Assembly (NCBI GenBank): GCA_021513695.1
Contig: CP084166.1
Location: 2,336,001 to 2,400,000 of the forward strand
DNA length: 64,000 nt
From: Candidatus Heimdallarchaeum aukensis
GTDB taxonomy: Archaea > Asgardarchaeota > Heimdallarchaeia > Heimdallarchaeales > Heimdallarchaeaceae
Reading direction: 5' to 3'
Shown here in pieces: positions 2,987 to 29,025 of this stretch. The notes beneath the pieces are model-generated. The model was given only the letters and a program-made list of their open reading frames with translations. It did not search any database and was not told the DNA's origin. How positions within the stretch are numbered: the stretch's first letter is position 1; each line of letters starts with the position of its first letter. The translations under genes were made by a program, and so were the position numbers.

Positions 2987-4163
2987 AGAGAAAAAATACA
3001 AAGAAAGGCAATTAAAGTTAGATGCAAAAAAACATTTCCTAGAACAATCCAAATTTACTGCAGCAGAGTTACAAGGAAGAGGATATCAGCTTTCACCTAT
3101 CTTGTTTGAAGATTCAAAAAGCAGAAGAGTATTTGATGAAGGAAAGGTTGAAAAATTTTCTTTTGTAGAGAAAACAAAAAAGGTATTTCTTACTTTATTT
3201 GGGTTTATTGTCAATCTTGTTTGGTTGGTTATTGACTATAATAATGTTAACAGTGAGAAATATTTTCTTCATAATAAAAATAGAAGTAAGAGAGAATATT
3301 ATACTGAATTAATATTACACATTTCAACATTTTATTCAATAACACTTATTGTTCTTGTTCTAATTAATTACTTTATTTTAGATTCGGCAGCTATTTCTTC
3401 TCTTTATGATATTCGTTCATTAGTTTGGTACCCGGATAGAGTATTGAGTTTAAGTTATATCTATGTTTTTTCAGCTGAAACTACTTTTGATATAATTACA
3501 AACACAATTTTAACAGTTTTAGTCCCATTTTTTATTGCTGGTGTTGTTGCTGGTATTGCATGGAAAGAAGATGCCAAAGATGTTGTCGGTCCATCTTCAT
3601 TTCTATCATTTTTACTGTTCATGGCTTTTTTCTTTAATGAAATCTTCATAACTTCATCCTTCAAAACAAATGATGTTCTTGCAGGATGGTTCTTGTCATT
3701 AATGTATGAATCTATGATGCTTATAATATTGTTTCAAGCACTTATGCTTAGTTTACTTGGTGGGGCATTGGGTGTTATGTTAGGCATTTCCTTTTCAAAT
3801 ATAGCTTCACAGAAGAATGATGAACAATCCTTTTTCTCACCTTCTATTCTCCCAGTAATACCTATTACAGTAAAAACTCTATTTGATATGGTAGATGTAT
3901 CTTCTTTAACTGGTTCTTCATTTAGCTCTAGAACAATGTTAGTTTATTTAAATAGAACTATAGAATTAAACTCAAAAAGAACAAGAACTGAACATTGTCC
4001 CTATTTTGTAGAAGGGCGTTGTGCATATTTAGGTTATAAAACCACTGCTACAAAAAAGCAAATCTGTACAACTGAATCATATAATTCTTGTAGGGTTCTC
4101 GCATTCATCTTGCAAAGTAAATTATTGATCAAAGAAATAAAAGAGGAAGAAAGAAATGGTTAA
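2961..4163 (+). CDS. polytopic membrane protein, hypothetical; C-terminal Cys-containing tail
   Basis: 400-aa ORF with multiple TM-like stretches; overlaps the upstream gene by 26 nt, so the true start may be an internal ATG. Confidence 0.45.
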   Translation: MLGVKFLDEEKKYKERQLKLDAKKHFLEQSKFTAAELQGRGYQLSPILFEDSKSRRVFDEGKVEKFSFVEKTKKVFLTLFGFIVNLVWLVIDYNNVNSEKYFLHNKNRSKREYYTELILHISTFYSITLIVLVLINYFILDSAAISSLYDIRSLVWYPDRVLSLSYIYVFSAETTFDIITNTILTVLVPFFIAGVVAGIAWKEDAKDVVGPSSFLSFLLFMAFFFNEIFITSSFKTNDVLAGWFLSLMYESMMLIILFQALMLSLLGGALGVMLGISFSNIASQKNDEQSFFSPSILPVIPITVKTLFDMVDVSSLTGSSFSSRTMLVYLNRTIELNSKRTRTEHCPYFVEGRCAYLGYKTTATKKQICTTESYNSCRVLAFILQSKLLIKEIKEEERNG

Positions 4164-4935
4164 TATCAAAGATTACATGAATCTAAAAGGTTTTGTTATT
4201 TTATTAGCTGCAATCCTGTTTATTTTACTAAATAGCACTCAAGAGTCCTATATCTCCATTGAGCAAATTGATTCTACAACTTTAGAAACAATTCAAACTG
4301 GTTCAGAAACGGGTACCGGTAGTGTCCCTCCTTCTCCTACTTCTACAAGTATACCTACATTTCCTGAAATCACGGATACTATTCCTCAACCTTCTTCTTC
4401 CAGTTTCTCACCAGCTACATTAATTGCTATTGTAACAAGTGTTATTTTCATAGGAATTATTATTCTATTAATTATGAAACGCAAAAATTTTGTCACTTAT
4501 GGTTCCTTCACTAAACCAAAAAGGATTCCTACAAAAACCATAATTGAAAAAAGAGAGATTTTTAGGACGCAAATTGTTACACTTAAAGATATCTTATTAG
4601 ATTACCTTGATAATAAAAAATATACCGAAGGTGTGATTTATGGTTTTCTTACCCTTGATAAAAATATGAAACAATTGTTAGGCTTAAAGAGAAAAAGTTC
4701 TCTAACACCTAAAGAATTCGCTGAATCCTTAGAACTTCCTGAGATCATTCAGAATCTAAAGAATATTGTTAATCAATTCTACAGAGCTAGATATAAACTT
4801 GATGAGTTAACAAAAGATGATTTGCTAGATTTTATTAATAATTTGGATATTATTAAAGAAAAAAGTAAAACTGCCAAGGAGATTGAAGTTCGTCAGGTTA
4901 TTGTAAAGGAGGAAATTACAAATGGAACGAATTAA
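4156..4935 (+). CDS. DUF4129-domain membrane protein (MoxR-module accessory) with a Thr/Ser/Pro-rich linker
   Basis: N-terminal signal/TM, then a TSP-rich segment (likely glycosylated linker), a second TM, and a C-terminal region with a DUF4129-like signature ('TPKEFAESL...FYRARYKLDELT'). Overlaps both neighbouring genes. Confidence 0.55.
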   Translation: MVNIKDYMNLKGFVILLAAILFILLNSTQESYISIEQIDSTTLETIQTGSETGTGSVPPSPTSTSIPTFPEITDTIPQPSSSSFSPATLIAIVTSVIFIGIIILLIMKRKNFVTYGSFTKPKRIPTKTIIEKREIFRTQIVTLKDILLDYLDNKKYTEGVIYGFLTLDKNMKQLLGLKRKSSLTPKEFAESLELPEIIQNLKNIVNQFYRARYKLDELTKDDLLDFINNLDIIKEKSKTAKEIEVRQVIVKEEITNGTN

Positions 4936-6220
4936 TGTCTCAAGTGTTCGTTATGAAGCTATTTTTAAACTAATCCTACAAACAATGATTTTGTTTTTAA
5001 TCTTGATTTTTCCATTTGTATTTAATTTTGTCACCACTTCCCCTCCTTATACAATAAATAACTATGGTCCTGGCGGTTATTCAATTTTTAGAGAAAAACT
5101 AGAAGATGAGGGTTTTGATGTATCTCGAATCTTGATAAGCACGGAAAATCTCTTAGATCTTCCTAAATCTTCTATTCTAGTAATTGCTGGGGGAACAAAA
5201 ACCTACAGAAATATTGAAATTCAGCGAATTACGGCCTTTTTATACAGAGGAGGAACTGTTTTCTTACTTATTGATTCTGTGACTTCACAAAATTTAGCGC
5301 TTAAACTAAATGTTAGTTCTTCAATGAGCAATATTATGGAAACAGTGAACTATTATAAAACTCCTGAGATAGTTTTGACTGAAGCTCCATTTAAAGAGGT
5401 ATTAAAACACTCTCCTATTGATAAATTGGCTTTTCTTCAACCTAAAGTGGTCTATGGCTCCACAAGTCCTTTTCTAAAAATACAAACAAATAATACTGCA
5501 TTTCTTGATTCAAATTTTGATAAAAAATGGTCTAGATATACAGAAGATTTGAGAAAATACACTCTGGTCACTGTTGAAGGTCGAGGTGCAGGAATTTTAA
5601 TTGTTGTCGGTTCTCCAAGTTTTTTAACAAATGATTTTTACACTGCTGGCTTTGCAAACATCAACACTACTATCTACCTTTTAAAACTCTACTCTAGCTA
5701 TTTGTTTGGAGAAGAGGAACGATATGTTTATTTTGATGAAAGTCATAAACGCTGGTCTATTTGGTCTAGAGATGGTCTCATAAATCAAACTTATGGGACT
5801 ATTACCCTTCTTACTCAATCTGAATCTTTTATTGTGATGATTCTTTTGTTGATTATTAGTCTATATTATCTACTACCTAACGTGCGCAAATTAAAGAAAC
5901 GATCTAAAGAAGGCTACAAAAACTTTCTAAAAAAACATATCTACAGCAAAGAACGTGAGCTTTACGATACTTTGGGGCAACCAGTAAAACCAACTGAAGA
6001 AGAAAAAATATTAACTTCTTTATATTTTCAATATGAAAACTTCCCAAATAGAGTATATAACATCTATTTACAAAGAAAGTTAAATAATATCAGTGAAAAG
6101 AAATTTACTGACCAAGAAAAAACACTGTTTAATGAAATCATTAAAAGAAAAATTGATTTCAAACTATTTATTTACTTGTTTAATAAATTAGAAGAAATAC
6201 AAAAGAGGAACTTAATATGA
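4922..6220 (+). CDS. DUF4350-like membrane protein (MoxR-module accessory)
   Basis: N-terminal TM, then 'GPGGYSIFREKLEDEGFDV...ILVIAGGTK...ITAFLYRGGTVFLLIDS', typical of DUF4350; second TM near the C-terminus. 4-nt overlap with the downstream MoxR gene. Confidence 0.55.
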   Translation: MERINVSSVRYEAIFKLILQTMILFLILIFPFVFNFVTTSPPYTINNYGPGGYSIFREKLEDEGFDVSRILISTENLLDLPKSSILVIAGGTKTYRNIEIQRITAFLYRGGTVFLLIDSVTSQNLALKLNVSSSMSNIMETVNYYKTPEIVLTEAPFKEVLKHSPIDKLAFLQPKVVYGSTSPFLKIQTNNTAFLDSNFDKKWSRYTEDLRKYTLVTVEGRGAGILIVVGSPSFLTNDFYTAGFANINTTIYLLKLYSSYLFGEEERYVYFDESHKRWSIWSRDGLINQTYGTITLLTQSESFIVMILLLIISLYYLLPNVRKLKKRSKEGYKNFLKKHIYSKERELYDTLGQPVKPTEEEKILTSLYFQYENFPNRVYNIYLQRKLNNISEKKFTDQEKTLFNEIIKRKIDFKLFIYLFNKLEEIQKRNLI

Positions 6221-7158
6221 ATGTAGAAGAAACAAAAGAAATTTTCCAAAAAGTCTTGGAACAGATGAAAAAAAGGATCGTAGGAAATGACAAAGTGATA
6301 GAATTAATTTTTGCTACGATGCTAGCCGATGGACATGTATTGTTGGAAGGAGTTCCTGGTATAGCTAAAACTTTAATGGCATCTACTTTAGCAGAAATAC
6401 TTGATCTCAATTTTAAACGAATTCAATTTACTCCCGATTTACTACCTGCTGATATTACAGGAGGAAATATATATAACAGAAAGACCAATGAGTTTGATTT
6501 TGTTAAGGGACCTGTTTTTACTAACATTCTACTAGCTGATGAAATAAATAGGAGTCCTCCCAAAACTCAATCTGCATTATTAGAAGCTATGCAAGAACAT
6601 CAAGTCTCAAGTGGAACGAAAACATATGACTTACCAGACCCATTTTTTGTTATCGCAACTCAAAATCCGATAGAGAGTACTGGTGTTTATCCCCTTCCCG
6701 AGGCACAAATTGATAGATTTTTAGTAAAAATTTTAGTTAAACCTCCAAATGTGTCTGGAGAAGTTGAAATGTTAAAAATGAAAAGAGAAAAGATGTTTGC
6801 TGATGTTGAAATAGTCGTAAAGAAGGAAACAATTTTGGCTATAAAAAGAGAAATTGAAACAAATGTTAAAATCTCTGATCAAGTACTGGAGTACATAGCA
6901 AAACTTGTTACAGCAACACGAGAGATACCTTCTTTATCATTAGGTGCAAGTCCTCGAGGATCTATCGCTTTATTAACTCTCAGTCGCTCTATTGCTGCCA
7001 TAAATGGTAGAGATTATGTTGAACCTGATGATATAAAATCTATCTTTCATGCCGTGATTAATCACCGTTTGATATTATCCCCTGAAGCAGAAATTGAACA
7101 AATAAAAGTTGAAGAGATAATTAAGAATCTCCTTTCTGAAGTTGAAGTAGTTATATAA
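6217..7158 (+). CDS. MoxR-family AAA+ ATPase (module 1)
   Basis: Walker A 'LLEGVPGIAKT'. Conserved MoxR blocks 'FKRIQFTPDLLPADITG', 'GPVFTNILLADEINRSPPKTQSALLEAMQE', 'FFVIATQNP...PLPEAQIDRF'. Confidence 0.9.
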   Translation: MNVEETKEIFQKVLEQMKKRIVGNDKVIELIFATMLADGHVLLEGVPGIAKTLMASTLAEILDLNFKRIQFTPDLLPADITGGNIYNRKTNEFDFVKGPVFTNILLADEINRSPPKTQSALLEAMQEHQVSSGTKTYDLPDPFFVIATQNPIESTGVYPLPEAQIDRFLVKILVKPPNVSGEVEMLKMKREKMFADVEIVVKKETILAIKREIETNVKISDQVLEYIAKLVTATREIPSLSLGASPRGSIALLTLSRSIAAINGRDYVEPDDIKSIFHAVINHRLILSPEAEIEQIKVEEIIKNLLSEVEVVI

Positions 7159-7177
7159 TTCAAACAGTGGTGAAATT

Positions 7178-8557
7178 TTGTCCTTAGAAACAAGAACTGA
7201 ATTAACTAACTCAGGAAGATTTCTTATACTAATCGGTTCCATCATGCTTGTTTTAGGGATTGCTATCGAAAATTATTTGTTTATTATCCCTGGATTATTT
7301 GTACTCTTGGTTATTATTTCAATTCTTGCTAATTTTTTCCTTTTCCAAAGTTTCCCAGAGGCTTCTATAACAGTTTCAAAAGACCATGTACGTAATAGGG
7401 GACTTGTGGCAGTTGTAGGTAATATTCGAAATAATAGCAAAAAAACGCTAATTTGCCGTATAACCCTAAACTATTCTTATCACTTTCATACAGTTGAAAA
7501 GCCCGAATCTTACCTTGTTCAAATAAAACCGGATTCCGAAATTAAACTAGATTGGTATTTATTAGCTATTAGAAGAGGAAATGGAACAATTGGACCAATT
7601 TCAATTTCTCTTAGATTTTTTCAGCAACTTCTTGTCAATCAAATAACTTGTCCAGAGAAAATACAAGTAAAAATTCTTCCTCAAAGACCAAAAATCCAAA
7701 TTCCGTGGAAAACGAAGAAGGATCTCTTGATGCAACTAGTAAACCAATTTGCACAAAGGGTTAAAGGACAAGGAACAGAATTTTTTGCTCTACGAGATTA
7801 TTTACCTGGAGATGAAATGAAGCATATAGATTGGAGAGCTACAGCTAGACATGATAAGCTCATAACGAGAGAATTTGAAGACGAAAAGCAGCTACACTTT
7901 CTCATTTTCCTTGATTTAGGAAGTACAATGTTTGGACCAAAATTTGATTATGCTTTGTCCAGTGTTGTTTCACTTTGTAGTTTGATAAAGGGGACCAATC
8001 ATGATTTGACTGTTATAGCTTATTCTCATGTAGTAGAGAAGTTTATTGTACCTCAAATTGGTATCCACGAATTAAAATTAATGCTTAATTTATATGATTT
8101 AGAAGCTACTGGAGTTCAAAGTGACTTTGTAGAAGCTGCAAAATTTGCTAGAACACAAAAATTTCATCATAGTATAGCAATCATCTTTTCTGACCTAGAT
8201 GGAGATATTAATCAAAAACTTCGTGGATTAGATATTCTTAAACTGATGGGGTCTAAGATTATATTTGTTAATTTTTCTACTCCAAGTTTTAACATTCTTG
8301 CATCCAAAGAATGGTTGATTGAAAAATCTCCAACGATATCTTATTCTACTATTTTAGATAAGGTTTTTTCAAGTTTAGCAATGGATGAATACAAAAATAG
8401 AGAATTAAAAGTAAGAAGAATATTACATGCTTTCGATGGAGATTTTGTTTCTATATATGGTTATGATGATGATATTATTTTAGCTCTCTATCGCCTTATG
8501 AAGAAATATAGCATTAAGCGAAAATTAGATGTTTTTTATAACAGAGGGGAAACTTAA
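7178..8557 (+). CDS. DUF58 protein (vWA-like; MoxR partner), module 1
   Basis: N-terminal TM helices plus the DUF58 signature 'FFALRDYLPGDEMKHIDWRATARHDKLITREFEDEKQ', followed by a vWA-like segment 'FLIFLDLGSTM'. Probable TTG start. Confidence 0.85.
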   Translation: MSLETRTELTNSGRFLILIGSIMLVLGIAIENYLFIIPGLFVLLVIISILANFFLFQSFPEASITVSKDHVRNRGLVAVVGNIRNNSKKTLICRITLNYSYHFHTVEKPESYLVQIKPDSEIKLDWYLLAIRRGNGTIGPISISLRFFQQLLVNQITCPEKIQVKILPQRPKIQIPWKTKKDLLMQLVNQFAQRVKGQGTEFFALRDYLPGDEMKHIDWRATARHDKLITREFEDEKQLHFLIFLDLGSTMFGPKFDYALSSVVSLCSLIKGTNHDLTVIAYSHVVEKFIVPQIGIHELKLMLNLYDLEATGVQSDFVEAAKFARTQKFHHSIAIIFSDLDGDINQKLRGLDILKLMGSKIIFVNFSTPSFNILASKEWLIEKSPTISYSTILDKVFSSLAMDEYKNRELKVRRILHAFDGDFVSIYGYDDDIILALYRLMKKYSIKRKLDVFYNRGET

Positions 8558-9339
8558 TGGTACGAATACGTGATGCAGATTTTGATGCAAATTGGAACTT
8601 AGAAATAAAAAAAACAAAAGGATTTCAGATTATACAAATTCTTCATCTACTATTTGGATTTATGGCACTATTACTTATTCTTGTTCAATCTATTCTGAGT
8701 GATAATATTATTATTTTTACAGTTTGGATGTCATTCACAATAATAATCCTGTTGATAGACATTTCTCGTGGAAGCAACATTAAGATACAAGATGAAATGG
8801 CTTTCTTTGGTTTAATGCTTCTAGGAACATTATTTTCTATGTATTTAGCTAATATTAAATCAATGTTCTTTATTGATAACTTCAACAGGGTGAATATAAT
8901 TTTATATCAAATCTTTGTTGGAGTATTTATATCTCTACGTTTTTTCTTTGCGATATACTTTGAATCAGTGTATAATAAAGAGTTCAAAGTTTTACATCCA
9001 AAAACAAGTTATTCTTCAGAACAATTAAAAATGTATAAAAATAACTTACTAAAAACTGACTTCTCTGTAAAGCAAGTTAAACAATTAGCCTTCAAAAATC
9101 AATTCTTTTATCTTTTATCTACAATCTTCATTCCAATAATCATAATTGGGATATTTGTGTTATTATCTTATGCTTATGCCTTTTTTATCTACTTACTTTT
9201 ACCCAATGATGTGCTTAAAGATTTCATAATTAAACCTGCATTTATAGTTTTTTCATTATTATTTAGTTTCATACTGGTAAGACTAGTTAATTCCTTACCA
9301 GAACTTCTTGGAAAAAAAATATCTGATAAAACAAATTGA
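8557..9339 (+). CDS. polytopic membrane protein, hypothetical (end of MoxR module 1)
   Basis: 260-aa hydrophobic ORF whose start overlaps the DUF58 stop (ATG/TAA overlap). Confidence 0.45.
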   Translation: MVRIRDADFDANWNLEIKKTKGFQIIQILHLLFGFMALLLILVQSILSDNIIIFTVWMSFTIIILLIDISRGSNIKIQDEMAFFGLMLLGTLFSMYLANIKSMFFIDNFNRVNIILYQIFVGVFISLRFFFAIYFESVYNKEFKVLHPKTSYSSEQLKMYKNNLLKTDFSVKQVKQLAFKNQFFYLLSTIFIPIIIIGIFVLLSYAYAFFIYLLLPNDVLKDFIIKPAFIVFSLLFSFILVRLVNSLPELLGKKISDKTN

Positions 9340-9436
9340 CAACAGAGCCGTTTATATTCAATTAATAAAATAATTAACTATAATAATACATTCACATATT
9401 AATAAGGAAAAGTAAAAAATGTTCTCTTTGTTTTTC

Positions 9437-10147: not shown

Positions 10148-10338
10148 TTCCTTCCATTATTTGCTCTTTATAGTTCATTATTTTACCTATTTCAAATTTG
10201 TTTCTATCGTTTTTTTATGAACTATTAATACTCTCTTTATTAAGCAAAATGAAATCAGAAACCTTTTTGAATTAAAAAGTATAATAATAAAAATAGGGTG
10301 TTATAATACATTATTCTAAGATAGATAGAGGATTCTTT
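10148..10338. promoter_or_regulatory. divergent AT-rich intergenic region (promoters for thyX and MoxR module 2)
   Basis: 191-bp non-coding gap between divergently oriented genes; TATA-like 'aaagtataataataaaaa' about 45 nt upstream of the 10339 start. Confidence 0.25.
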
Positions 10339-13300: not shown

Positions 13301-13449
13301 ATAGCATAGATAATGGTTCGTTTGATTTTATTAGGGGTATAAACACTTACCTTCTTGCTATTTCAGCTACAATTGCACTCGTTACTGCAAAAAAACTTCT
13401 TTTTCCTAATAAAAAGAGGTGTACCCAAAAAAAAAGAAATAAATGGTGA
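10339..13449 (+). CDS. large membrane protein with Lys-rich cytoplasmic N-terminus, TM bundle, transglutaminase-like core and C-terminal TM (probably catalytically inactive)
   Basis: TGase-like core 'AYISLTVMALRRLGIPARPVMGF...LYYWVEVLMPLD' (around nt 11750-11930). Compared with the consensus 'G.C....RxLGIPAR.V.G...HAWvEv', Cys appears replaced by Ser and His by Tyr. About 5 N-terminal TMs and a final TM 'YLLAISATIALVTA'. Confidence 0.55.
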   Translation: MATKVKKLKTTKRLKHKPAVVPKKTRKIKTKKSKLPITTVEEKKLKVKNIIFTIIFGALTVAAFFFRKIISNLNPPSDPVTELIITVVRLFLIGLFTYITLLSFETYKVKFHPKPLRILLTVITLIVFFPLTLFKYYTRHNVWRIIFVGMTIISLFMTFFGSYLTGVLYRDSLNGAEPDKNPIDTSFLSSPFIINLPVDIESFLDLLNNLGDLDDLTLETSVANITAQNGFLGNFLYRWDVYDEYNPDGWEFEKSNEATLYNIPQDERGEPSDFDSATDVRMSIQQSIYTATSGVDISLLSTWNSIYRPHIDWESDWSDNVRDLQGNSVGSSDTSIYYDTQDQLHLKTKADKSDPLTPFQGTFEYTTYFMYEDDIDFIMQNSLDYEDLDSNYIQSEYSAFLQAPNGYYDTISTAVTNFADNEIGSTIDSSTSVYDVVSSVIQNVLNKGNLENIFGATNVDTGGEDPANVLARNEDAPSSAYISLTVMALRRLGIPARPVMGFAVGSGTDSYREIKLANLYYWVEVLMPLDTDNDGSADEYRWGQFQIGPYPVDETTFVFCDNSLNAQYDLNLEIFEQTTGDVRTMSSGEGEIYLVDHGVTYTIQVSATRSGNPSENVPITLKSYSASELQGGFSTSILSGGIEISQQPIVTDASGVATLTYEFTPENYSTFDLADQTGTTYFIVALNGLNSYSAKGIAIFPSGYLTDVVLNASKQTIPNPQNLAETKTYYLIQQGWKYEMFSYLYKEGPPGTDPLENRTVNYYLLTPEQLQDIINGASIDPTQFTLIGSATTDPDGNSSVFSVNETTQVDYFTSLTVNTTYAILAVYGFNYSYAPIVIIDGLIASVKVNDTLLDTGTDGYTMWEEINVTLSMQPPNGYAEPLADEDVWLWVVYETDWQEYDGSIDGTTYNSTLNSSTRSYYIGHRKTNSNGQIIENYLIDATQLGAGKFKIVAIYSERWEGSEDIFIVVGPALSVIINTKNTVILDSYSIDNGSFDFIRGINTYLLAISATIALVTAKKLLFPNKKRCTQKKRNKW

Positions 13450-16400: not shown

Positions 16401-17147
16401 GTTACGCTGTTCATTACTCTGACAGATCCAAACGGTGTTGAAGTGGAAAATGAAGCAATAGCTTTAACAGCTCAAGCTGGTACAATTATTTATAGTTACA
16501 CCCTAGATCTGAGTGTTTTTAATTATTCAGTATATGGAGGATATTTATTAGAATATCATTTCTACGTGGAAGATACTATAGGTAATAATATTAGTACGAC
16601 TTCTGTTCAATTAGCTATTAGTAATCCTGCGCCACCCAATCGTCCTCCTGTTGGAGATCCAGCTGATCCAAGTAGTGAGACCCCTATAGGTGGTATTGTT
16701 GGAGGAGCAATTGGTGGTATTGTTGCTCTTATAGTAATTCTTTTCCTATGGTTCAATAGACACTCTCTCCGAAGTTATGCTCAGCAACAAACATTGAGAA
16801 AGAGACTAAGAGACTATCTTCGCGAAATACTAGAAGACATCAAACGTTTGGGTTCAGAAAGCCGTTACAAAGAAGCTGTTCTAAAAACCTGGCAAGTAAT
16901 TGAGGGTGTAGGAAGAGAATTTTTTGATACTCCTAGGTTTAGACATCAAACACCTATGGAGTATGCTACTGTTCTTTCCAGAAGAGGAAAGATAGATATG
17001 GCGATACTCAATACTCTTTCGGAGTATTTTGAAAAAGCAAGATATGGCGCTGAAGTGATAACTGAAACAGACTTCAATGCAACCATATCTGCATTAATGA
17101 AAATAATTAACCAGTTAGAAGCTGGTGAAATGGAAATAGAAACATAA
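13443..17147 (+). CDS. giant secreted multi-beta-sandwich (Ig-like) surface protein with C-terminal TM and cytoplasmic DUF4129 domain
   Basis: Signal peptide 'IFTVFISLIIFLSSLPVYS'. About 1000 aa of Thr/Ser/Asn-rich beta-rich repeats. TM 'IGGIVGGAIGGIVALIVILFLWF', then 'TPRFRHQTPMEYATVL...YFEKARYGAEV' (DUF4129 signature). Confidence 0.55.
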   Translation: MVRTMKYYNHIKIFTVFISLIIFLSSLPVYSFNYEKLVTKSDLDPTIENNLINYENKNRELNVYSNFKHSSHFTKREKKTPGNYEYYRSPLNIGLYVSIPGTSSLSSDSSRLKLSISSPTEGTKLFRGNTITVSGVLRSAAPNDFWDGETVEIYYNLTEAEFKVDPDSYRSSNYYVTSVVTNSQGEFTATISTSTLSADFRSKVGNITIFTWFDGNPDKGRGSGSPGSSYVFVYGGLKTDVSYSVTNPNQPYSFTTRILFDNNTEVTTSGTQYHIQVTWLTDNRVDINGNFTFTTNSHTYSNTSPSTIQTVKYESYYDSSQLSLNFFVTTGDTSFSNKLLHAVKQATTSEQVVVSSYYVTGTGLTDADIAIPLDSYITVYANVSDSSGLVGAGYNVTLEFYHGTTRYNLTTIQTNSSGAIQTKHFVDHNNIADITINNAFYITMTVSSSEFGGADVTPDSLGSVLESIINSISISISNTTIFYTSGKSISYTVTVTDNFGRVAPLAQFQVDFPGLSVITSSTGSSGTKTLSSVIPSYTIHTQTKTINVTALFTDGGTYRYFLNGTPQNNDTFNIYFDLTLTLQGPYDSNIVDGESTSYFNNTYYSFFQTGNIYNLTVVDEWGRNPVGAPFSLNFEGQTVSGVVTSGNNFIELDPDFNPTTGVDINVPTTISLVAEAGEANYQSSISHTVSIYGPDLDAPVINGETLSPNPFTTASHEPFFNVSFSISVSDVGSGVRSVIIYYQVIESNDSSLLNPANWITLNLTDLGGGIWFGYINTTIDFALQYVHYYIEVKDYAGYGLQENGTRQPTAQYDENFGLTGYLYNETHTNYYQLGDYEPPVEVAVPTTVDSPDPKSPYLNITVYVNDSLIYTGVSQVLIYINRTAVGGTTEINWVNGVQMTNIPGTNAWFYQLLAEYNYQYSWYYVAYDNAEPSPRTFKSQTYTYEAIDDTPPIIYNIDVVPSTGLLWNSTMNFTIRVDDVQNEVENVTLFITLTDPNGVEVENEAIALTAQAGTIIYSYTLDLSVFNYSVYGGYLLEYHFYVEDTIGNNISTTSVQLAISNPAPPNRPPVGDPADPSSETPIGGIVGGAIGGIVALIVILFLWFNRHSLRSYAQQQTLRKRLRDYLREILEDIKRLGSESRYKEAVLKTWQVIEGVGREFFDTPRFRHQTPMEYATVLSRRGKIDMAILNTLSEYFEKARYGAEVITETDFNATISALMKIINQLEAGEMEIET

Positions 17148-17148
17148 G

Positions 17149-17655
17149 GTGAATAAAATGTTCGGATGGGCAAAAAAGAGAAAAAGGTTAAAAAAATTAG
17201 ATCAACTGTTTAATGCTGCTATGGCTGATGTAAGAATATTTGAGCAAAGGCAAGACTATAGAGGAGCAGTTATTGCTTCATTTGGAGGTCTTGCAAGCAT
17301 TGCAGAGAACTTGATAAATCTTACAAGAGCTCCACATCAGACAGGTAGAGAATTTGGCATGCAAGTTGCAGAACAAGCAAACATCTCTACAGAAGTCATG
17401 GATGAGTTTCTTACATCTTTTGAAATAGCTAGATACACAGAAAGAGAAATAGGTTATGATGATTATCAAGAGGCCGTACAACGATTAGATGTTTGCTTTA
17501 GAGGAATACGAGAGCAAGGTATTCAAGAAATAACTGAAGTAACATCTTCAAAGAAAGAAAAGAAACCAAAAGTGAAAACAGCTAAAGCAGCAAAAACTGA
17601 AGTTAAAACTACTAAACAGTTAAAAACTCGAAAACAGTTGAAAACTAGAAGATAA
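17149..17655 (+). CDS. stand-alone DUF4129-like protein with highly basic Lys-rich C-terminal tail
   Basis: 'APHQTGREFGMQVAEQ...FEIARYTEREIGYDDYQEAV' resembles the DUF4129 core. C-terminus 'KKEKKPKVKTAKAAKTEVKTTKQLKTRKQLKTRR'. Confidence 0.4.
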   Translation: MNKMFGWAKKRKRLKKLDQLFNAAMADVRIFEQRQDYRGAVIASFGGLASIAENLINLTRAPHQTGREFGMQVAEQANISTEVMDEFLTSFEIARYTEREIGYDDYQEAVQRLDVCFRGIREQGIQEITEVTSSKKEKKPKVKTAKAAKTEVKTTKQLKTRKQLKTRR

Positions 17656-17703
17656 TGGTTTGGTTCTAAAAAAAGATAAATGAAAAAAAATGGTGTGTAA
17701 TGT

Positions 17704-19488
17704 ATGTCCGAAAAAGAAAATCAAGAAATAGTGGACGAATATGAACAAGAACTTGTGAAAAAAGAAGATGATTCATCAAAAAAGAAAAAAGTAAAGAAGG
17801 CTAAAGTTAAAAGAAAAAGTAAAAAACCAAAGAAAAAATTCAAACTTAGAAAAGTAAGGTTTACAAAGTATTCTTTAGCTATGACCTTGCTATTTCTCAT
17901 AGTTATCGTTCCACTGTTTATTGGTTTAGTTGGATTAGGTGGAAGAAGTGTAAAATTTTCCATCTACAACACCGGTTGGGATGGTCTTTCCACTGTATAT
18001 AATACATTACAAGCTGAAAACAAATATGAAATATCAAACGGAATGTCAAGTTTAACTATTTTAAATAGATTGAATAGCAGTGGAGTTCTCGTAGTTATCG
18101 GACCAACAACAAGTTACAACTTTGCTGAGACAATTAGTCTCGTAACCTTTCTGGTAAGAGGAGGAAGTTTGATAGTTGCTGACGACTTTGGTTCAGGAAA
18201 TAAAATATTCGAACCGCTTTGGAACGTTATTGCAACCTATGACTCTCTTGTATCTTTAGGACTTGTTCCTTCTTTAACAGATATATTCTTCGGAAATCAA
18301 AGTGCACCATCAAATGTTACATCAGTTGAAGATTTAGCTGGTGCAGCAATTTTTGAGATGCTAGCAGGAATGTTAAAAGCAATAGGTTTTAATCAAACGG
18401 TATTAATGGATGCAGGAAGTAATTATGGTGGAGTAAGTTCTCAACCGTTGTTAAAGGATACAAATCCAGATAACCCCTTAACTGCTGGAATTACAAAGGG
18501 AGTTCAAATGGAATTTGGTACGGTATTAAGTGTTAAAATCAATAACTCTCGATATAATCCATCCACAGGACGTTATGAGTGGTATACAGATTGGGTTCCC
18601 TTGCAGCCTTTGTCTATAAATGTCACAATTGAAGGGGGAGAGTATGGAAATCTTGAGCCAATTTTCATTGAAGATGTGATGTTACCTTTTCTCTCGTTTT
18701 TCACAACTACGACATCGTGGATGGAGTCGAATTTTAGAGATGCACTTACTGGAGAAGCAGTTCCCAATGAAGGAGAATGGGGAAACACTGCCTTTGCCCC
18801 TATTTTGTCAATACCAATAGGTAGGGGAAAAATAGTTATGATTGGAGACCCTGATATATTCATAAATAAATGGATAGAAGATACAGAAAATAATGATAAC
18901 TTGCAATTTTGTCAGAATTTGTTCAATTATGTAACCGAAAATATGGTTGCAAATACAACAAGTGGAAAAATACCTATAATATTTGATGAAGGACATACAC
19001 AATATAAATTCTATAGTCCTGCTCTGGTATCAACCATTTTAATGAGGTTGATTACTGAAATGTCCATGTATCCACTTTATTCACCTTTTGTTCCTATCAT
19101 GTTTGCTGTTATAGCATATCCCCTTATCCCAAAAGCTAGACGATTGGCCCCTGTATTATGGACTAGATACAGAGGAGAAAGAGGAAGGTCACGATTTGAA
19201 CGCGAAATAAAAAGAATATTAGAAACTGGAAGTTACAGTGAAGCAGTAGGTTTACTTTATAGGTCCATGTTACGGGGAGTAAGAAAAGTAGATACCTCTG
19301 CCGCAAGTTCACCTAAATCTTTGGCAGATTTCTTTATTTCAAGGGGATACCCCCTAAAAAGAGGAGCGTTGGTAAGTGAATTCGAGCGAATTGATCGCTA
19401 TTTACAGAGACCAAAGTTGCTCCCACAATCTGAATTTGAAAAAATGTTGCAGTTTATCAAGAATTTAATTGATACTCTGCCTAAATAG
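17704..19488 (+). CDS. DUF4350-like membrane protein (module 2) with Lys-rich N-terminus
   Basis: N-terminal poly-K segment, TM, then 'TGWDGLSTVYNTLQAENKYEIS...GVLVVIGPTTSY...FLVRGGSLIVADDFGSGN' (DUF4350-like); second TM near the C-terminus. Confidence 0.55.
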   Translation: MSEKENQEIVDEYEQELVKKEDDSSKKKKVKKAKVKRKSKKPKKKFKLRKVRFTKYSLAMTLLFLIVIVPLFIGLVGLGGRSVKFSIYNTGWDGLSTVYNTLQAENKYEISNGMSSLTILNRLNSSGVLVVIGPTTSYNFAETISLVTFLVRGGSLIVADDFGSGNKIFEPLWNVIATYDSLVSLGLVPSLTDIFFGNQSAPSNVTSVEDLAGAAIFEMLAGMLKAIGFNQTVLMDAGSNYGGVSSQPLLKDTNPDNPLTAGITKGVQMEFGTVLSVKINNSRYNPSTGRYEWYTDWVPLQPLSINVTIEGGEYGNLEPIFIEDVMLPFLSFFTTTTSWMESNFRDALTGEAVPNEGEWGNTAFAPILSIPIGRGKIVMIGDPDIFINKWIEDTENNDNLQFCQNLFNYVTENMVANTTSGKIPIIFDEGHTQYKFYSPALVSTILMRLITEMSMYPLYSPFVPIMFAVIAYPLIPKARRLAPVLWTRYRGERGRSRFEREIKRILETGSYSEAVGLLYRSMLRGVRKVDTSAASSPKSLADFFISRGYPLKRGALVSEFERIDRYLQRPKLLPQSEFEKMLQFIKNLIDTLPK

Positions 19489-19539
19489 AATAATGTTTCA
19501 AAAAATAAAAACAAAAAAAGAAAAGGAAAGTGAAAAAAA

Positions 19540-20541
19540 ATGAGTGAAGAAGAAAAACCGGCAAAACCGGCTAAAGGAAAAGCACAAACCGAAGCAGTGG
19601 TAACTCCAAAAGATATCAAGAGAGTTTGGTCTGAGATCTATGCTGAATTAAAACGTGTAATTATAGGTAAACTAGACGTACTGGAAGATCTCTTTATTGC
19701 TCTTCTAGCAAGAGGACATGTGCTGCTTGAAGGTGTACCTGGTGTTGCAAAAACCGTCATGGCTAAAAATTTTGCTGCTACCCTTGGAGCTGAATTCAAA
19801 AGAGGACAATTTACCCCAGATTTACTTCCAAGTGACGTTGTAGGTACTACAATATATGATCCTAAAGCAGGAACATTCAAAATGAGAAAAGGACCTATAT
19901 TTACAAACATCTTCTTGGCTGACGAAATTAACAGAAGTCCTCCAAAAACCCAAGCTGCATTACTTGAAGCAATGGCTGAAAAACAAGTCACAGTGGAAGG
20001 AACTACATTCAAGCTTGAGCCACCTTTTTTGGTAATTGCAACTCAAAACCCTGTAGAACAAGAGGGAACTTACCCATTACCAGAAGCACAAGTAGATCGT
20101 TTTATGTTTAAACTGATAGTTGACCTACCTTCGCCAGAAGAAGAAATAGAGATAATTGATCTTTCACACAAGCATGCTTTTCGCACAGTTCGCAGAATAA
20201 CTACTCCTATGACCATCATCAGAATGATAGAAACTGTGGAGAAAAGAATCTATGTACATGAAGATATTATGGCTTATATCAGAGATATTACTGTCGCAAC
20301 TCGTACTGATCCACGATTATTACTTGGTGGTTCTCCAAGATGTAGTATCGCGCTGTTAAATGCTTCAAAAGCTGTAGCTGCAATGAACGGTAGAGATTAC
20401 GTAATTCCTGATGATGTTAAACGAATAGCAAAAATAGGCGCAGCTCATCGATTGCAGATGAAACCGGAAGCAGAATTGGAAGGTACCACTGGAAGTATGG
20501 TTATGGACGACATCTTGCGCAATTTACCAGTACCAGTATAA
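19540..20541 (+). CDS. MoxR-family AAA+ ATPase (module 2; paralog of 6217..7158)
   Basis: 'LLEGVPGVAKT', 'FKRGQFTPDLLPSDVVG', 'GPIFTNIFLADEINRSPPKTQAALLEAMAE', 'LVIATQNP...PLPEAQVDRF'. About 60-65% identical by eye to the module 1 MoxR. Confidence 0.9.
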   Translation: MSEEEKPAKPAKGKAQTEAVVTPKDIKRVWSEIYAELKRVIIGKLDVLEDLFIALLARGHVLLEGVPGVAKTVMAKNFAATLGAEFKRGQFTPDLLPSDVVGTTIYDPKAGTFKMRKGPIFTNIFLADEINRSPPKTQAALLEAMAEKQVTVEGTTFKLEPPFLVIATQNPVEQEGTYPLPEAQVDRFMFKLIVDLPSPEEEIEIIDLSHKHAFRTVRRITTPMTIIRMIETVEKRIYVHEDIMAYIRDITVATRTDPRLLLGGSPRCSIALLNASKAVAAMNGRDYVIPDDVKRIAKIGAAHRLQMKPEAELEGTTGSMVMDDILRNLPVPV

Positions 20542-20551
20542 AGTTAATTAG

Positions 20552-22000
20552 GTGATTACAATCTTTACACGAAGAGGAGGATACCTGATATTCTTTGGTA
20601 TTGTAATGATTAGCGTAGGCTTTGCACTTGCAGGTTTCCTAGCTCTAAATAATATACTTGAATCATTTGGAGCACATCCAGTGCCTGAAACATCAACAGA
20701 AGGCCCTCAAGGAACAGGTTTAATGGATCTTTTACATTTCTACCTTTTAGATTCGACTCTAATATGGTATTTCATCATTTTAGGTGTTATGCTAATATTT
20801 TCCGTTATGCTTGGTTTACCTTTCTATAGACTCGGTGCAAACCCTGAATCTATAGAAATAAAAAGAAAAGTAGCTAAAGCAAAAGCTTTTGCAGGAGATT
20901 ATGTGTATATAGAAGTGACAGTAAGAAACAGATCTGTAAACCAGCTTCCCCACGTAGAAATTTACGATGCAATTCCAGAAGTCTTTGACTTAGTGTTAGG
21001 CGAAAATTTCATTATTACACAGCTGAATCCAAAGGAAACAGTTACATTTGGATATGTAGTTCGGATACCAATTAGAGGATTGTTCAATATTGGACCAACT
21101 AAAGTTATAATCAAAGATAGAATGGGATTCTACGCTACAGAAGGAGAAATTAAAACAAAGACGGAGATATTAGTTTATCCAAGCTATGAAGATATTAGAA
21201 AAATGGAAATGATAGGCAAAAAACGTCGTCTAGGTGTAATTTTTGGAATGCATAGAACTAAAGTTAAAGGAATGGGAGACGATTTCGCTGGAATTAGACA
21301 GTATCAAACAGGAGATCCATTTAAATTTATTGACTGGAAAAGCGTTGCACGTTCTGGGAAAATGATGGTTCGTGAATTCGAAGCAGAGCAAAATATTCGA
21401 GTAATTATCATGATCGATGCCTCTGCAAGTATGGGTGCTGGGCTACCTAGAAACACTAAGTTAGAATATGCTATTCGAAGTGCAGTGTTACTAATGCATC
21501 TTGCTTTCGAAAAACACGATATGGTTGGTTTGTGTGTTTATGATGATGAAGTTAGAACATGGATTGATCTAACCAGTTCTAGAAATAGACTCTTTGCGTT
21601 TTTGGAGGCTTTAGCCTTAGTAAAACCAAAAGGGGAATCAGATCTAGAAAAAGCTATGGATTATGCAATAAAGAGAGTACGAAGAGCATCCTATATAGTT
21701 ATTTTGTCTGATTTAGAGTCTAATCCACAAAAAATAGTTTCAGCAATTAGGCAAGCGCGGGGACGGAAACACCAAGTAACAGTTATAAGTCCATTTGGAC
21801 CTTGGTTTGAGATTGTATCTCAGCAATTGAGCCCCATAGAGCAACTAATTGGTTATGCTATGGTTGAAAAACAGATGGGTGAAAGATATAGAATGTTTAA
21901 GGCTATAAGAAAATTCGATGCTACCACTGTTAATGTTGGACCAGATGATTTCTTACCTACAATTATGGCTCAGTTCAGAAGGATACAAAGGAGGGGATGA
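20552..22000 (+). CDS. DUF58 protein (vWA-like), module 2
   Basis: N-terminal TMs, 'FAGIRQYQTGDPFKFIDWKSVARSGKMMVREFEAEQN', then 'VIIMIDASASMG' (vWA MIDAS-like DxSxS). Confidence 0.85.
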   Translation: MITIFTRRGGYLIFFGIVMISVGFALAGFLALNNILESFGAHPVPETSTEGPQGTGLMDLLHFYLLDSTLIWYFIILGVMLIFSVMLGLPFYRLGANPESIEIKRKVAKAKAFAGDYVYIEVTVRNRSVNQLPHVEIYDAIPEVFDLVLGENFIITQLNPKETVTFGYVVRIPIRGLFNIGPTKVIIKDRMGFYATEGEIKTKTEILVYPSYEDIRKMEMIGKKRRLGVIFGMHRTKVKGMGDDFAGIRQYQTGDPFKFIDWKSVARSGKMMVREFEAEQNIRVIIMIDASASMGAGLPRNTKLEYAIRSAVLLMHLAFEKHDMVGLCVYDDEVRTWIDLTSSRNRLFAFLEALALVKPKGESDLEKAMDYAIKRVRRASYIVILSDLESNPQKIVSAIRQARGRKHQVTVISPFGPWFEIVSQQLSPIEQLIGYAMVEKQMGERYRMFKAIRKFDATTVNVGPDDFLPTIMAQFRRIQRRG

Positions 22001-22003
22001 AAA

Positions 22004-23515
22004 ATGGAATCATTATCAGAAACAAGAATGATTGATCTTGGAATTAGAGGAGTAGAACGAAGGCTTAAAGGGGCAAGAACACAGACTATTATTACCAACG
22101 TAATTTCTAGATTAATTGCTATAGGTGTTATATTATGGCTATTTCTTCAATTATGGACTAATATTGATAAAACAAAATTACCTCCTGGCCATTTAATTGA
22201 TTCACTTACTATCTTCTTTCTCTATTTTGAGAATTTTGCGGTATTATTCTTTCTTATACCAATATTCTTGATATCTTTAATTTTCGGAGCAATGGGTAGT
22301 GGCGCAGATGGGAGCGCTATATTACTTACGGCAAGAGCATTTTTTACTGTAGACATTTTCAATAATGTTTCTCCTCCAGAACCGATGACTTCATCTGAAC
22401 TTTATGGAAGTGAAAGCACAAACATGTTTTCAGTCTTTACCAGTGCTTTTGGTTATCTGTGGCGAAATCGTATTTACTTCAAAGATACTAATCGAGCAAC
22501 AATTCTCATTTTAGCTGTAATTATTTTCTGGTTAGGTGTAACTGCCTTTCTGATGAGGTCTGATATGAGGACAGCAGCAACCGTCTTTGCTTCTTCTCAA
22601 TTCATTGTACTATATGCTCAAACCCAATTGTTATTTAAAAATCAGTTATATTATGCTCCAACAGAAAATATAGTTGTGCTCTTTTCTTATGATGCAGTAA
22701 TTACAGCTTTAGCATCATATCTGTTCCTAGAGATAGCGTTGCAAACATCTTATATCTCTAAAATACTTAATCCAACGCAAGATAGACAAAAAAGAGTTTT
22801 ACAAGCTCTTGATAGACTAAAAGAATTTAGATTAGGAATAACCCCTGTAACAACAGAAGTGAGTAAACCTGAAACTGAGGAGACTAAAAAGGAAGCCTCA
22901 AAAACAATTGCAGGAGCAGGAAGCAGTTTGGTCAAAAAGTACGGTGCTACAGCAGTGGCGTTTTTAGCAGAAAAAACTAAAGATTCGCTTTTTGCTAAAC
23001 CTGGAGGACGACAAGCTAAATTGACAGGGAGACTGCAACGATATCATGATAGTTTGGTGCATAGTGATACAGAGGTTGATCAAAAACTAGTAGGGGCATC
23101 AGTAGCTGTCTCACCAATGATGACGATAGTATATATTACCATTTCAATAATCTTTAGATTAATAATAATGATGCTCGGACTATTTTTAGTCTTAAATCCT
23201 GATATTCTGTTATTCATTCTTCGTTATCCTCCTTCAATTTATTATAGTCTAGAAATGTTAGAACCAGAAGGAGTAGTTCTACTTTTAATACCAATAGTAG
23301 TAATGATATTATTGTTAACAGAGCTAATAGGTTATATACAGAAGAGATTAGCTGAAAGAATAACCCAAGAAAAAACAGAAGAAGAATTAATGGAAGAAAT
23401 TCAATATGAAGAAGAAGAGGGCACAGGAGTAGTAACAGAAGGACCGATAAGTGATATATCAGAAGAAGAATTATTCTATAAACAATTAGAAGAAGAATTC
23501 TCTGATGAAGAATAA
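22004..23515 (+). CDS. polytopic membrane protein with strongly acidic C-terminal tail, hypothetical (end of module 2)
   Basis: 503 aa with many hydrophobic segments. C-terminus 'EEELMEEIQYEEEEGTG...EEELFYKQLEEEFSDEE'. Same position as the membrane protein ending module 1. Confidence 0.45.
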   Translation: MESLSETRMIDLGIRGVERRLKGARTQTIITNVISRLIAIGVILWLFLQLWTNIDKTKLPPGHLIDSLTIFFLYFENFAVLFFLIPIFLISLIFGAMGSGADGSAILLTARAFFTVDIFNNVSPPEPMTSSELYGSESTNMFSVFTSAFGYLWRNRIYFKDTNRATILILAVIIFWLGVTAFLMRSDMRTAATVFASSQFIVLYAQTQLLFKNQLYYAPTENIVVLFSYDAVITALASYLFLEIALQTSYISKILNPTQDRQKRVLQALDRLKEFRLGITPVTTEVSKPETEETKKEASKTIAGAGSSLVKKYGATAVAFLAEKTKDSLFAKPGGRQAKLTGRLQRYHDSLVHSDTEVDQKLVGASVAVSPMMTIVYITISIIFRLIIMMLGLFLVLNPDILLFILRYPPSIYYSLEMLEPEGVVLLLIPIVVMILLLTELIGYIQKRLAERITQEKTEEELMEEIQYEEEEGTGVVTEGPISDISEEELFYKQLEEEFSDEE

Positions 23516-29019: not shown

Positions 29020-29025
29020 GGAGAA

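Follow-up and report, generated by a model that had tools for sequence, protein, structure and literature searches.

Two neighbouring MoxR-DUF58 operons of distinct subtypes in Candidatus Heimdallarchaeum aukensis, and how they may act from inside the cell

Two gene modules built around a MoxR AAA+ ATPase and a DUF58 protein lie side by side in a 64,000-nucleotide (nt) stretch of the genome of Candidatus Heimdallarchaeum aukensis (contig CP084166.1, positions 2,336,001 to 2,400,000; hereafter the window). Both belong to a widespread cassette encoding DUF4129, DUF4350, MoxR and DUF58 proteins, which in archaea is the arCOG01314 neighbourhood, and it is well supported that they represent two old subtypes of this cassette. 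The overall reading that we consider probable is that of two separate operons encoding distinct, long-diverged membrane complexes, in each of which the MoxR-DUF58 pair would work from inside the cell. Every step of this mechanism is drawn from predicted topology and from analogy with other pairs of a MoxR protein and a protein with a vWA (von Willebrand factor type A) domain. A cell-surface role for both modules is plausible and matches the published prediction for arCOG01314 (PMC5898192). The locus is an already predicted operon type and not a new system, and its function is inferred.

Layout and descent of the two modules

An Asgard-type host had been guessed in a first-pass annotation of the sequence, and this was borne out, the source being an Asgard archaeon; a Logan contig is 100% identical to the window across 21 kb. 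Contigs of relatives that were compared with the window are referred to by L-numbers (L003, L006 and so on to L061). Fifteen tightly packed open reading frames (ORFs) fill the + strand from 963 to 23515, with thyX on the - strand as the sole interruption, and a convergent EF-2 gene (23649-25880) closes the array. Module 1 spans 1340-9339, possibly from 963, and module 2 spans 10339-23515; loci and proteins of the two kinds are called M1-type and M2-type below. The genes are listed here (aa, amino acids; TM, transmembrane segment; scores from Pfam).

963-1235, + strand: small ORF of 90 aa containing two hydrophobic stretches; it may be the first gene of module 1, so far without annotation
1340-2986, + strand: PrsW-like polytopic membrane protease with four CxxC zinc-ribbon pairs, about 10 TM and a weak DZR match
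2961-4163, + strand: 6-TM protein of no known family with a Cys-rich C-terminus; orthologues 35-47% identical, in the same place in L008 and L009
4156-4935, + strand: DUF4129 protein (23.8 bits, just below the gathering score of 24.8), TM at residues 7-25 and 89-107
4922-6220, + strand: DUF4350 (arCOG01314/GldG-like) protein (49 bits), TM at 17-35 and 294-312, basic predicted cytoplasmic tail
6217-7158, + strand: MoxR AAA+ ATPase of the MRP type (AAA_3 217.7 bits, AAA_lid_2 76.6 bits)
7178-8557, + strand: DUF58 protein with an N-terminal TM hairpin and a vWA-like domain (DUF58 58.4 bits against a gathering score of 23.4)
8557-9339, + strand: terminal polytopic membrane protein of an orphan family; position kept, with 21-43% identity, in L008, L009 and L014
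9437-10147, - strand: thyX (Thy1 218.6 bits), a conserved separator and not a component; same place in L006, L008, L009 and L010
10339-13449, + strand: transglutaminase-like membrane protein (Transglut_core 32.9 bits against a gathering score of 23)
13443-17147, + strand: giant surface protein of 1234 residues (C-terminal DUF4129 26.8 bits)
17149-17655, + strand: small soluble DUF4129 protein of 168 residues with a Lys-rich tail and no TM (28.1 bits)
17704-19488, + strand: DUF4350 protein (47.6 bits), TM at 62-80 and 457-475
19540-20541, + strand: MoxR AAA+ ATPase (AAA_3 215.2 bits, AAA_lid_2 76.4 bits)
20552-22000, + strand: DUF58/vWA protein (DUF58 124.3 bits against a gathering score of 23.4, VWA_2 56 bits)
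22004-23515, + strand: terminal polytopic membrane protein of an orphan family with a charged loop and an acidic C-terminal tail; orthologues 25-54% identical in all complete M2-type loci

The start of module 1 had been placed at 4156, but it lies at 1340, as the genes at 1340-2986 and 2961-4163 overlap into the module and are syntenic in all relatives examined. An ORF of 84-87 aa is found upstream of the PrsW-like gene in L006, L008 and L009, in the same place as the ORF at 963-1235 of the window. Start/stop overlaps had been described inside both modules; they hold for module 1 (26, 8, 14, 4 and 1 nt, with a single 19-nt gap) but not for module 2, whose junctions are mostly gaps (1, 48, 51, 10 and 3 nt) with at most one overlap, of 7 nt, given as a 5-nt gap by other gene callers. 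The modules had also been called tandem, and they do neighbour each other on the same strand, but they are not strictly adjacent. Because thyX on the opposite strand and an AT-rich, divergent spacer of 192 nt between thyX and module 2 intervene, the two are best taken as separate transcription units. The extra genes claimed for module 2, encoding a transglutaminase-like protein and its giant neighbour, were confirmed with the scores and length listed above.

Common descent of the two modules, as proposed from the start, is upheld by the Pfam domains and by pairwise alignment. Pfam assigns DUF4129, DUF4350, MoxR (as AAA_3) and DUF58 in the same order in both, and the DUF58 gene lies immediately 3' of the MoxR gene in each. 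MoxR proteins are defined by Walker A, Walker B, sensor 1, Arg finger and sensor 2 motifs, and both MoxRs carry, by direct reading, GVPG(I/V)AKT (Walker A), L(L/F)ADEINR (Walker B), ATQNP, PEAQ(I/V)DRF and G(A/G)SPR. Their identity, put by eye at roughly 60-65%, is 48% by BLASTP. The other pairs have diverged further in pairwise BLASTP, to 22% for DUF58, about 23% for DUF4129 and 32% for DUF4350, the last across 107 N-terminal residues only. Shared gene order holds for these four families, but the terminal membrane proteins at 8557-9339 and 22004-23515 correspond by position only, with no homology detected by BLAST or hhalign (probability 0.2%). Comparison of the protein designated A2 with either terminal membrane protein by hhalign was negative, and a Pfam search at E<=1 with both terminal families and their orthologues returned scattered chance matches only, with no SpoIIM and no RDD. 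The view that only surface-exposed parts had diverged fails on the same comparison, as the predicted cytoplasmic DUF58 is just 22% identical and the accessory proteins are near or beyond the detection limit.

The first-pass annotation, which proposed maturation or remodelling of surface proteins as the function, had read the locus as a lineage-specific tandem duplication, followed by divergence of the surface-exposed parts only, so that two machines would serve two surface clients. The common core order, strand and neighbourhood, the homology of all four core families and the fact that adjacency is seen only in Heimdallarchaeaceae-type loci can all be cited in its favour. However, each module has closer orthologues outside the family than in its sister module. 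M1-type MoxR homologues at 55-63% identity occur in Kariarchaeaceae, in Hodarchaeales and in metagenome-assembled genomes (MAGs) labelled Thor- or Promethearchaeota, and M2-type MoxR orthologues in Hod-like genomes are 52-60% identical. In a neighbour-joining (NJ) tree built from 25 MoxR sequences, of which four are duplicate entries, the M1-type and M2-type proteins split with 100% bootstrap, and both clades span several lineages, each with Heimdallarchaeaceae and Hod-like members. A search of 1.8 billion cluster representatives with the M2 DUF58 found 113 at E<=1e-30 and 8184 at E<=1e-10, whereas the M1 DUF58 reaches only 66 bits (E 2e-13) against that query, so that the 113 representatives score far better than the supposed sister. 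The nearest relatives of the M2 DUF58 beyond the Hod-type are from Loki/Promethearchaeota (36%), and a Thermoplasmata representative stands at 29%. The low DUF58 identity and the unrelated terminal membrane proteins also count against a duplication within the lineage. Since orthologues exceed the 48% and 22% inter-module identities of MoxR and DUF58, and given the NJ split and the DUF58 ranks, the modules are old paralogous operon types and no product of a recent tandem duplication. The duplication reading is thus largely refuted, and we regard it as highly improbable. From the sequence comparisons it is well supported that the modules are old, distinct paralogous subtypes of one cassette, brought or kept together in one family.

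The full two-module layout, with thyX on the - strand in between, recurs in H. endolithica and three Heimdallarchaeaceae MAG lineages that are more distant, in the order PrsW-like protein, 6-TM protein, DUF4129, DUF4350, MoxR, DUF58, membrane protein, thyX, transglutaminase-like protein, giant protein and onward. The modules are directly seen side by side in the window, L006/L007, L008, L009 and L010; this arrangement was found only in Heimdallarchaeaceae-type loci among those examined, and in those Hod-like loci that were inspected the two types do not adjoin each other. When one genome per GTDB species was scanned with an alignment of the M2-type DUF58, using 10-kb flanks that stop short of module 1, M2-type orthologues turned up in 45 species-level genomes. 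In 24 of these (DUF58 72-97% identical) the transglutaminase-like, giant, small DUF4129, DUF4350, MoxR, DUF58 and terminal membrane protein genes are followed by EF-2, as far as the contigs extend. The remaining 21 (DUF58 41-44%), mostly labelled Hodarchaeota, have the small DUF4129, DUF4350, MoxR, DUF58 and membrane protein genes with no transglutaminase-like gene and no EF-2 neighbour. M1-type loci in L013, L014 and L015 encode PrsW-like, DUF4129, DUF4350, MoxR, DUF58 and small membrane proteins, each of which matches module 1 better than module 2; the PrsW-like protein of L013 and L015 was recognised by its similarity to that of the window. L061 has a minimal M1-type locus, the core only, without PrsW. 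Between species, identity is 76-79% for MoxR, 74% for the M2 DUF58 and 72% for the small DUF4129 protein, on a par with EF-2 (75%), as against 34-42% for ectodomain proteins and 34-53% for the transglutaminase-like, giant, PrsW-like and DUF4350 proteins taken together. This pattern fits slow-evolving cytoplasmic machinery combined with fast-evolving exposed parts.

The partner proteins and a shared DUF4129 tail

By domain and TM assignments, the partners of MoxR and DUF58 are nearly all membrane or surface proteins. Topologies were predicted from hydropathy (TM segments) and from the distribution of Lys and Arg (positive-inside rule). The DUF58 hairpin has a basic N-terminus, a loop that is acidic in module 2, and a basic stretch after the second TM; on this Lys/Arg pattern and the positive-inside rule, the Ig-like and vWA domains should be cytoplasmic. 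The module 2 protein consists of the hairpin with its acidic outer loop, an Ig-like region and a vWA domain with an intact metal-ion-dependent adhesion site (MIDAS; DASAS, of the DxSxS type) and an invariant D387. The module 1 protein has no VWA_2 match, and its MIDAS is non-canonical in the window (DLGST) and DxSx(T/S) in orthologues. A PDB sequence search with DUF58 gave no match; the closest solved structure to the module 2 MoxR is 2r44 (E 6e-78).

DUF4129 is typically the C-terminal domain of TgpA-like proteins. In the window it is found on three proteins of otherwise different build. The module 1 protein has an N-terminal signal or TM, an ectodomain of about 60 residues rich in Ser, Thr and Pro, a further TM and a predicted cytoplasmic DUF4129 domain; the giant protein ends in a TM and a DUF4129 tail; and the small protein of module 2 is soluble. 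Although the Pfam score of the module 1 protein is borderline, the call stands because hhalign aligns it with the TM and tail of the giant protein at 97% probability. The small soluble protein aligns with the same region at 97.6%, and values among the three range from 93 to 98%. Against the M1 DUF4129 profile, the module 2 DUF4350 tail reaches 80%; the same comparison of the M1 DUF4350 tail with DUF4129 was negative. The DUF4129 domains in the window share Y.EAV, TP.E(F/Y) and ARY motifs. An AlphaFold2 model of the small protein (pLDDT 78.9), which is conserved at 65-73% across its family, is a five-helix bundle whose best structural matches are HEPN domains. In four window domains checked for the HEPN Rx4-6H RNase motif, no His lies 4-6 residues past the conserved Arg of ARY. 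DUF4129 is predicted to be a cytoplasmic, HEPN-like helical tail on otherwise unrelated surface proteins.

The DUF4350 proteins have a basic N-terminus, a TM, an ectodomain, a second TM and a basic tail placed in the cytoplasm. In module 2 the N-terminus is Lys-rich, the ectodomain alpha/beta and the predicted cytoplasmic tail helical. For an AlphaFold2 model of this protein (pLDDT 66.9), a fold search returned nothing at E<=0.001; the weak matches were 8bd7_B, a chain of IFT-B1 (E 0.013), one GATase1-like protein and some beta-galactosidases. Fourteen homologues of the module 1 DUF4350 protein were found, and those carrying a name are all from Heimdallarchaeia.

Module 1 is distinguished by its PrsW-like protein. 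PrsW and CPBP proteases carry EExxK/R, FxxxH-type and HxxxN motifs in TM helices, and the EExxK, E, P(l)H and HxxWN motifs of the present protein, together with its four CxxC pairs, are invariant in 8 orthologues. The PrsW-protease family PF13367 matches the orthologues in L008 and L014, and weakly that in L006; the window protein, which is 34% identical to the L008 and 29% to the L014 orthologue, has no match at E<0.01.

In the Heimdallarchaeaceae version of module 2, and only there, a transglutaminase-like gene is found. Its product has 4 N-terminal TM, a large ectodomain and a C-terminal TM. The Transglut_core match is weak or absent in the orthologues of L008, L009 and L010, and a PDB sequence search with this region returned chance tubulin matches only (E>=0.16). 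The catalytic positions were registered by eye on the orthologue alignment, against the transglutaminase consensus, G-x-C...GIPAR...H-x-W-x-E...D. In five orthologues the Cys, His and Asp positions are occupied by S/I/A/L, Y/G and Q, with no Cys nearby, and the GIPAR...WVE framework is kept. With the triad absent, the protein is very probably not an enzyme and is best read, as far as sequence can tell, as a conserved pseudoenzyme.

The giant protein consists of a signal or TM, an ectodomain of about 1050 aa with 30 NxS/T sequons and no Cys, a TM and the predicted cytoplasmic DUF4129 tail; given its many sequons it is probably glycosylated. Full-length Heimdallarchaeaceae orthologues are 35-46% identical, as against 72-76% for DUF58. 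A co-occurring strain (L003) has the same MoxR protein as the window and flanks of 98.7-99.4% identity, and the N-terminal half of the giant gene (window 13528-15527, L003:4110-5988) is only 91.8% identical. Deletions of 77 and 43 nt lie at the edges of this segment in L003, where the gene is called as a pair of ORFs of 569 and 547 aa, which could be a local hotspot of surface-protein variation or an assembly problem. In the Hod-like contigs L011 (4224-9326) and L012 (4127-9256), a protein of 1700 aa sits where the transglutaminase-like and giant genes would be. It has no detectable similarity to either protein and no Pfam match. As another protein fills this position, the large upstream protein of the cassette appears freely exchangeable.

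The C-terminus of the module 2 terminal membrane protein (window 23380-23515) is strongly acidic (EEELMEEIQYEEEEG...EEEFSDEE), and the consensus of its orthologues is acidic there too; this tail is a candidate ligand for the DUF58 MIDAS site. Ten module proteins searched against NCBIfam gave no meaningful match.

Several features of the surroundings can be added. In L010, thyX (607-2400, - strand) encodes 597 aa as against 236 in the window and has a faint LAGLIDADG_3 match, which suggests an intein or a homing-endonuclease insertion. An F420 (FO synthase)-like cluster lies downstream of EF-2 (window 26127-30153), with Amidohydro_1, RibD_C and two radical-SAM proteins, one of them with CofH_C, and beyond it are two more large + strand ORFs at 31120-34320 (1066 aa) and 34747-37293 (848 aa). 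Both module 1 of L008 and L009 and the single M2-type module of L011 and L012 have F420-ligase (cofE-like) and TPR-like genes at their flanks. In four lineages an Arf/Ras/Roc-type small GTPase gene lies 4-8 kb from an M1-type module (L008:1346-1933; L013:17798-18334; L014:16506-17039; L061:5001-5525), and in L013 and L014 it adjoins a gene for a protein of 262-263 aa without a Pfam match and a GH57 gene. This proximity may be chance, because Asgard genomes hold many such GTPases.

An inside-acting mechanism and its rivals

In the mechanism that we favour, a MoxR hexamer would sit in the cytoplasm, and DUF58, tethered by its TM hairpin with the vWA/MIDAS domain inside the cell, would act as its adaptor in the manner of NorQ/NorD, RavA/ViaA and CbbQ/CbbO. 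The clients would be cytoplasmic parts of the bitopic surface proteins encoded alongside. Among these would be the DUF4129 tails that the giant protein and the small stalk protein (rich in Ser, Thr and Pro) carry and the tail of DUF4350, with the acidic C-terminus of the module 2 terminal membrane protein as a possible addition. ATP hydrolysis inside the cell could then drive the assembly, disassembly or conformational remodelling of an extracellular complex. Its scaffold would be the DUF4350 (GATase1/GIFT-like) ectodomain, joined in module 2 by the inactive transglutaminase-like ectodomain, and the PrsW-like protease may add proteolytic control in module 1.

Several points weigh against this picture. 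The topologies rest on hydropathy and the positive-inside rule only, and the transglutaminase-like ectodomain would formally be cytoplasmic, because it follows four N-terminal TM and a basic N-terminus. Makarova et al. 2015 held that the vWA protein is probably secreted (PMC5898192), and its secretion would rule out the contact with MoxR assumed above. Only in module 2 does the DUF4350 tail look DUF4129-like, and there with 80% probability only, and the M1 DUF58 of the window has Gly in place of the first MIDAS serine.

An alternative is the protein-export system suggested by Makarova et al. 2015, in which large surface proteins would be secreted by a conduit or outer scaffold made of the DUF4350, membrane and vWA proteins, with MoxR assembling or regulating it. 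This is a published prediction for the neighbourhood, resting on the similarity of DUF4350 to GldG and on the mostly membrane or extracellular parts (PMC5898192), and module 2 does encode a giant surface protein. MoxR1 of M. tuberculosis is also reported to assist Tat export of RipA, as cited in PMC12067865. Yet in Pfam and NCBIfam searches of the module proteins nothing recognisable as channel-forming or as a translocase appeared, nor an ABC transporter that could partner the GldG-like protein, and the surface proteins carry ordinary N-terminal signal or TM segments that suggest Sec insertion. Module 1, moreover, is without a large secreted client, and DUF58 is predicted to face the cytoplasm. 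We consider export unlikely.

Transmembrane signalling through regulated proteolysis has also been weighed. Here the PrsW-like protease of module 1, or a ligand-binding pseudo-transglutaminase in module 2, would sense an envelope cue, a bitopic DUF4129 protein would be cleaved or rearranged, and MoxR-DUF58 would extract or remodel its cytoplasmic part and so relay the signal. In B. subtilis, PrsW makes the site-1 cut in the anti-sigma factor RsiW, which speaks for such a role. The catalytic-type PrsW motifs are invariant and the gene is co-operonic in the M1-type loci that carry it, and the module 1 DUF4129 protein has an anti-sigma-like bitopic layout. The bifidobacterial PFNA cluster (FN3, MoxR, DUF58, transglutaminase) has likewise been discussed as a signalling device (PMC8430577). 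However, neither module contains a transcription factor, sigma factor, kinase or DNA-binding domain, and the M1-type core of L061 is without PrsW. We consider signalling quite improbable.

Finally, an anti-virus or conflict function of the MoxR-vWA class could be considered for the locus, or a chaperone role in metal-cofactor insertion like that of NorQD or CoxDEF. For the former, the Pfam family bpMoxR (MoxR of ternary conflict systems) scores 39-47 bits, and the giant gene varies at the strain level as described above. The bpMoxR match is generic, since AAA_3 scores about 215 bits. There is no beta-propeller or effector gene by Pfam and no PADLOC match, and the core-genome synteny by EF-2, thyX and F420 genes in 24 species is unlike a defence island. 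For the latter, PMC9976466 and PMC13036017 describe MoxR-vWA pairs as known cofactor-insertion chaperones, but no metalloenzyme client is encoded nearby. Both ideas are barely credible here.

The inside-acting mechanism can be pushed further. Both modules may be dedicated ATP-driven, inside-out machines that grip the HEPN-like DUF4129 tails of bitopic envelope glycoproteins to control surface assembly, turnover or conformation, with the PrsW-like protease and a ligand-binding pseudo-transglutaminase as sensors; in this full form the idea is a conjecture that we think doubtful. If true, the lineage closest to eukaryotes would possess envelope-remodelling devices of a new archaeal class. More speculative still, and prompted by the IFT-B1 chain being the best solved match to its model, is the thought that the DUF4350 ectodomain might mark the prokaryotic root of the eukaryotic GIFT domain.

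Comparison with known systems

To what is already predicted for this operon type can be added a PrsW-like partner in the M1 subtype, a dead transglutaminase-like partner in the M2 subtype, a shared predicted cytoplasmic DUF4129 tail and the ancient paralogy of the two neighbours. A literature search for PrsW together with MoxR found no paper linking them, and the genome paper (PMC8813620) is without mention of the locus. These anatomical additions narrow the candidate clients and give testable contacts in a DUF4350/MoxR/DUF58 cassette that is widespread among prokaryotes; the DUF58 family alone comprises >25,000 clusters at 50% identity. Little is known about the cell surface of the closest archaeal relatives of eukaryotes, which makes an operon of the core genome that encodes a sequon-rich surface protein of 1234 residues a reasonable candidate for an envelope component.

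The closest known system is the archaeal neighbourhood of arCOG01314 (DUF4350), MoxR (COG0714) and vWA genes, for which Makarova, Galperin and Koonin 2015 (PMC5898192) predicted a complex for secretion or membrane remodelling. Both share a DUF4350 protein with an N-terminal signal or TM and a C-terminal TM, a co-operonic MoxR, an Ig-like and vWA (DUF58) protein, and variable membrane and surface proteins. In its weak fold matches, the model of the module 2 DUF4350 protein agrees with the published GldG/flavodoxin-like assignment of the ectodomain. GldG/ABC_transp_aux (PF09822) scores 33.6 bits in module 1 and 21.7 bits in module 2, below the gathering score of 34.7, and Pfam detects no ABC ATPase or permease gene in either module. 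Unlike the present modules, the published component table is without DUF4129, PrsW-like and transglutaminase-like proteins, two subtypes side by side are not described there, and the vWA protein, predicted here to be cytoplasmic, is held to be probably secreted (PMC5898192).

The mycobacterial cluster Rv3689-Rv3695 has the same DUF4350 (Rv3691)-MoxR (Rv3692)-DUF58 (Rv3693) core together with polytopic membrane proteins. It includes a membrane protein, the SpoIIM-like Rv3694c and the RDD protein Rv3695, and its genes are co-regulated in M. chelonae (PMC8191103). By contrast, the terminal membrane proteins of H. aukensis match neither SpoIIM nor RDD, the host is an archaeon, and PrsW-like, giant and transglutaminase-like proteins are added.

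Module 2 also resembles the TgpA-type cluster of P. aeruginosa (PA2875-PA2873; PMC3507681) and the PFNA cluster (pkb2-fn3-aaa-duf58-tgm; PMC8430577); in the latter, a polytopic membrane protein whose transglutaminase-like domain faces outward accompanies MoxR, DUF58 and a large FN3 surface glycoprotein. The Cys-His-Asp triad that the Heimdall protein lacks is intact in TgpA, for which transglutaminase activity has been measured (PMC3507681). At E<0.01 Pfam detects neither DUF3488 nor DUF4129 in the product of 10339-13449, and DUF4129 is instead found on the next two gene products. As for tgpA, its two co-transcribed genes presumably encode a MoxR and a DUF58 protein; PMC3507681 does not name them. 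Compared with both systems, the H. aukensis locus has no Ser/Thr kinase, and DUF4350 is present.

A further parallel is provided by the NorQ/NorD, RavA/ViaA and CbbQ/CbbO pairs, in which an AAA+ MoxR protein likewise stands beside a vWA/MIDAS partner. In PMC9976466 and PMC13036017, an adaptor-mediated pull on the client is given as the probable working principle of MoxR-vWA pairs. The three pairs, whose targets are metalloenzymes or respiratory enzymes, are soluble, whereas in H. aukensis the vWA partner is membrane-anchored and the candidate clients are all membrane or surface proteins.

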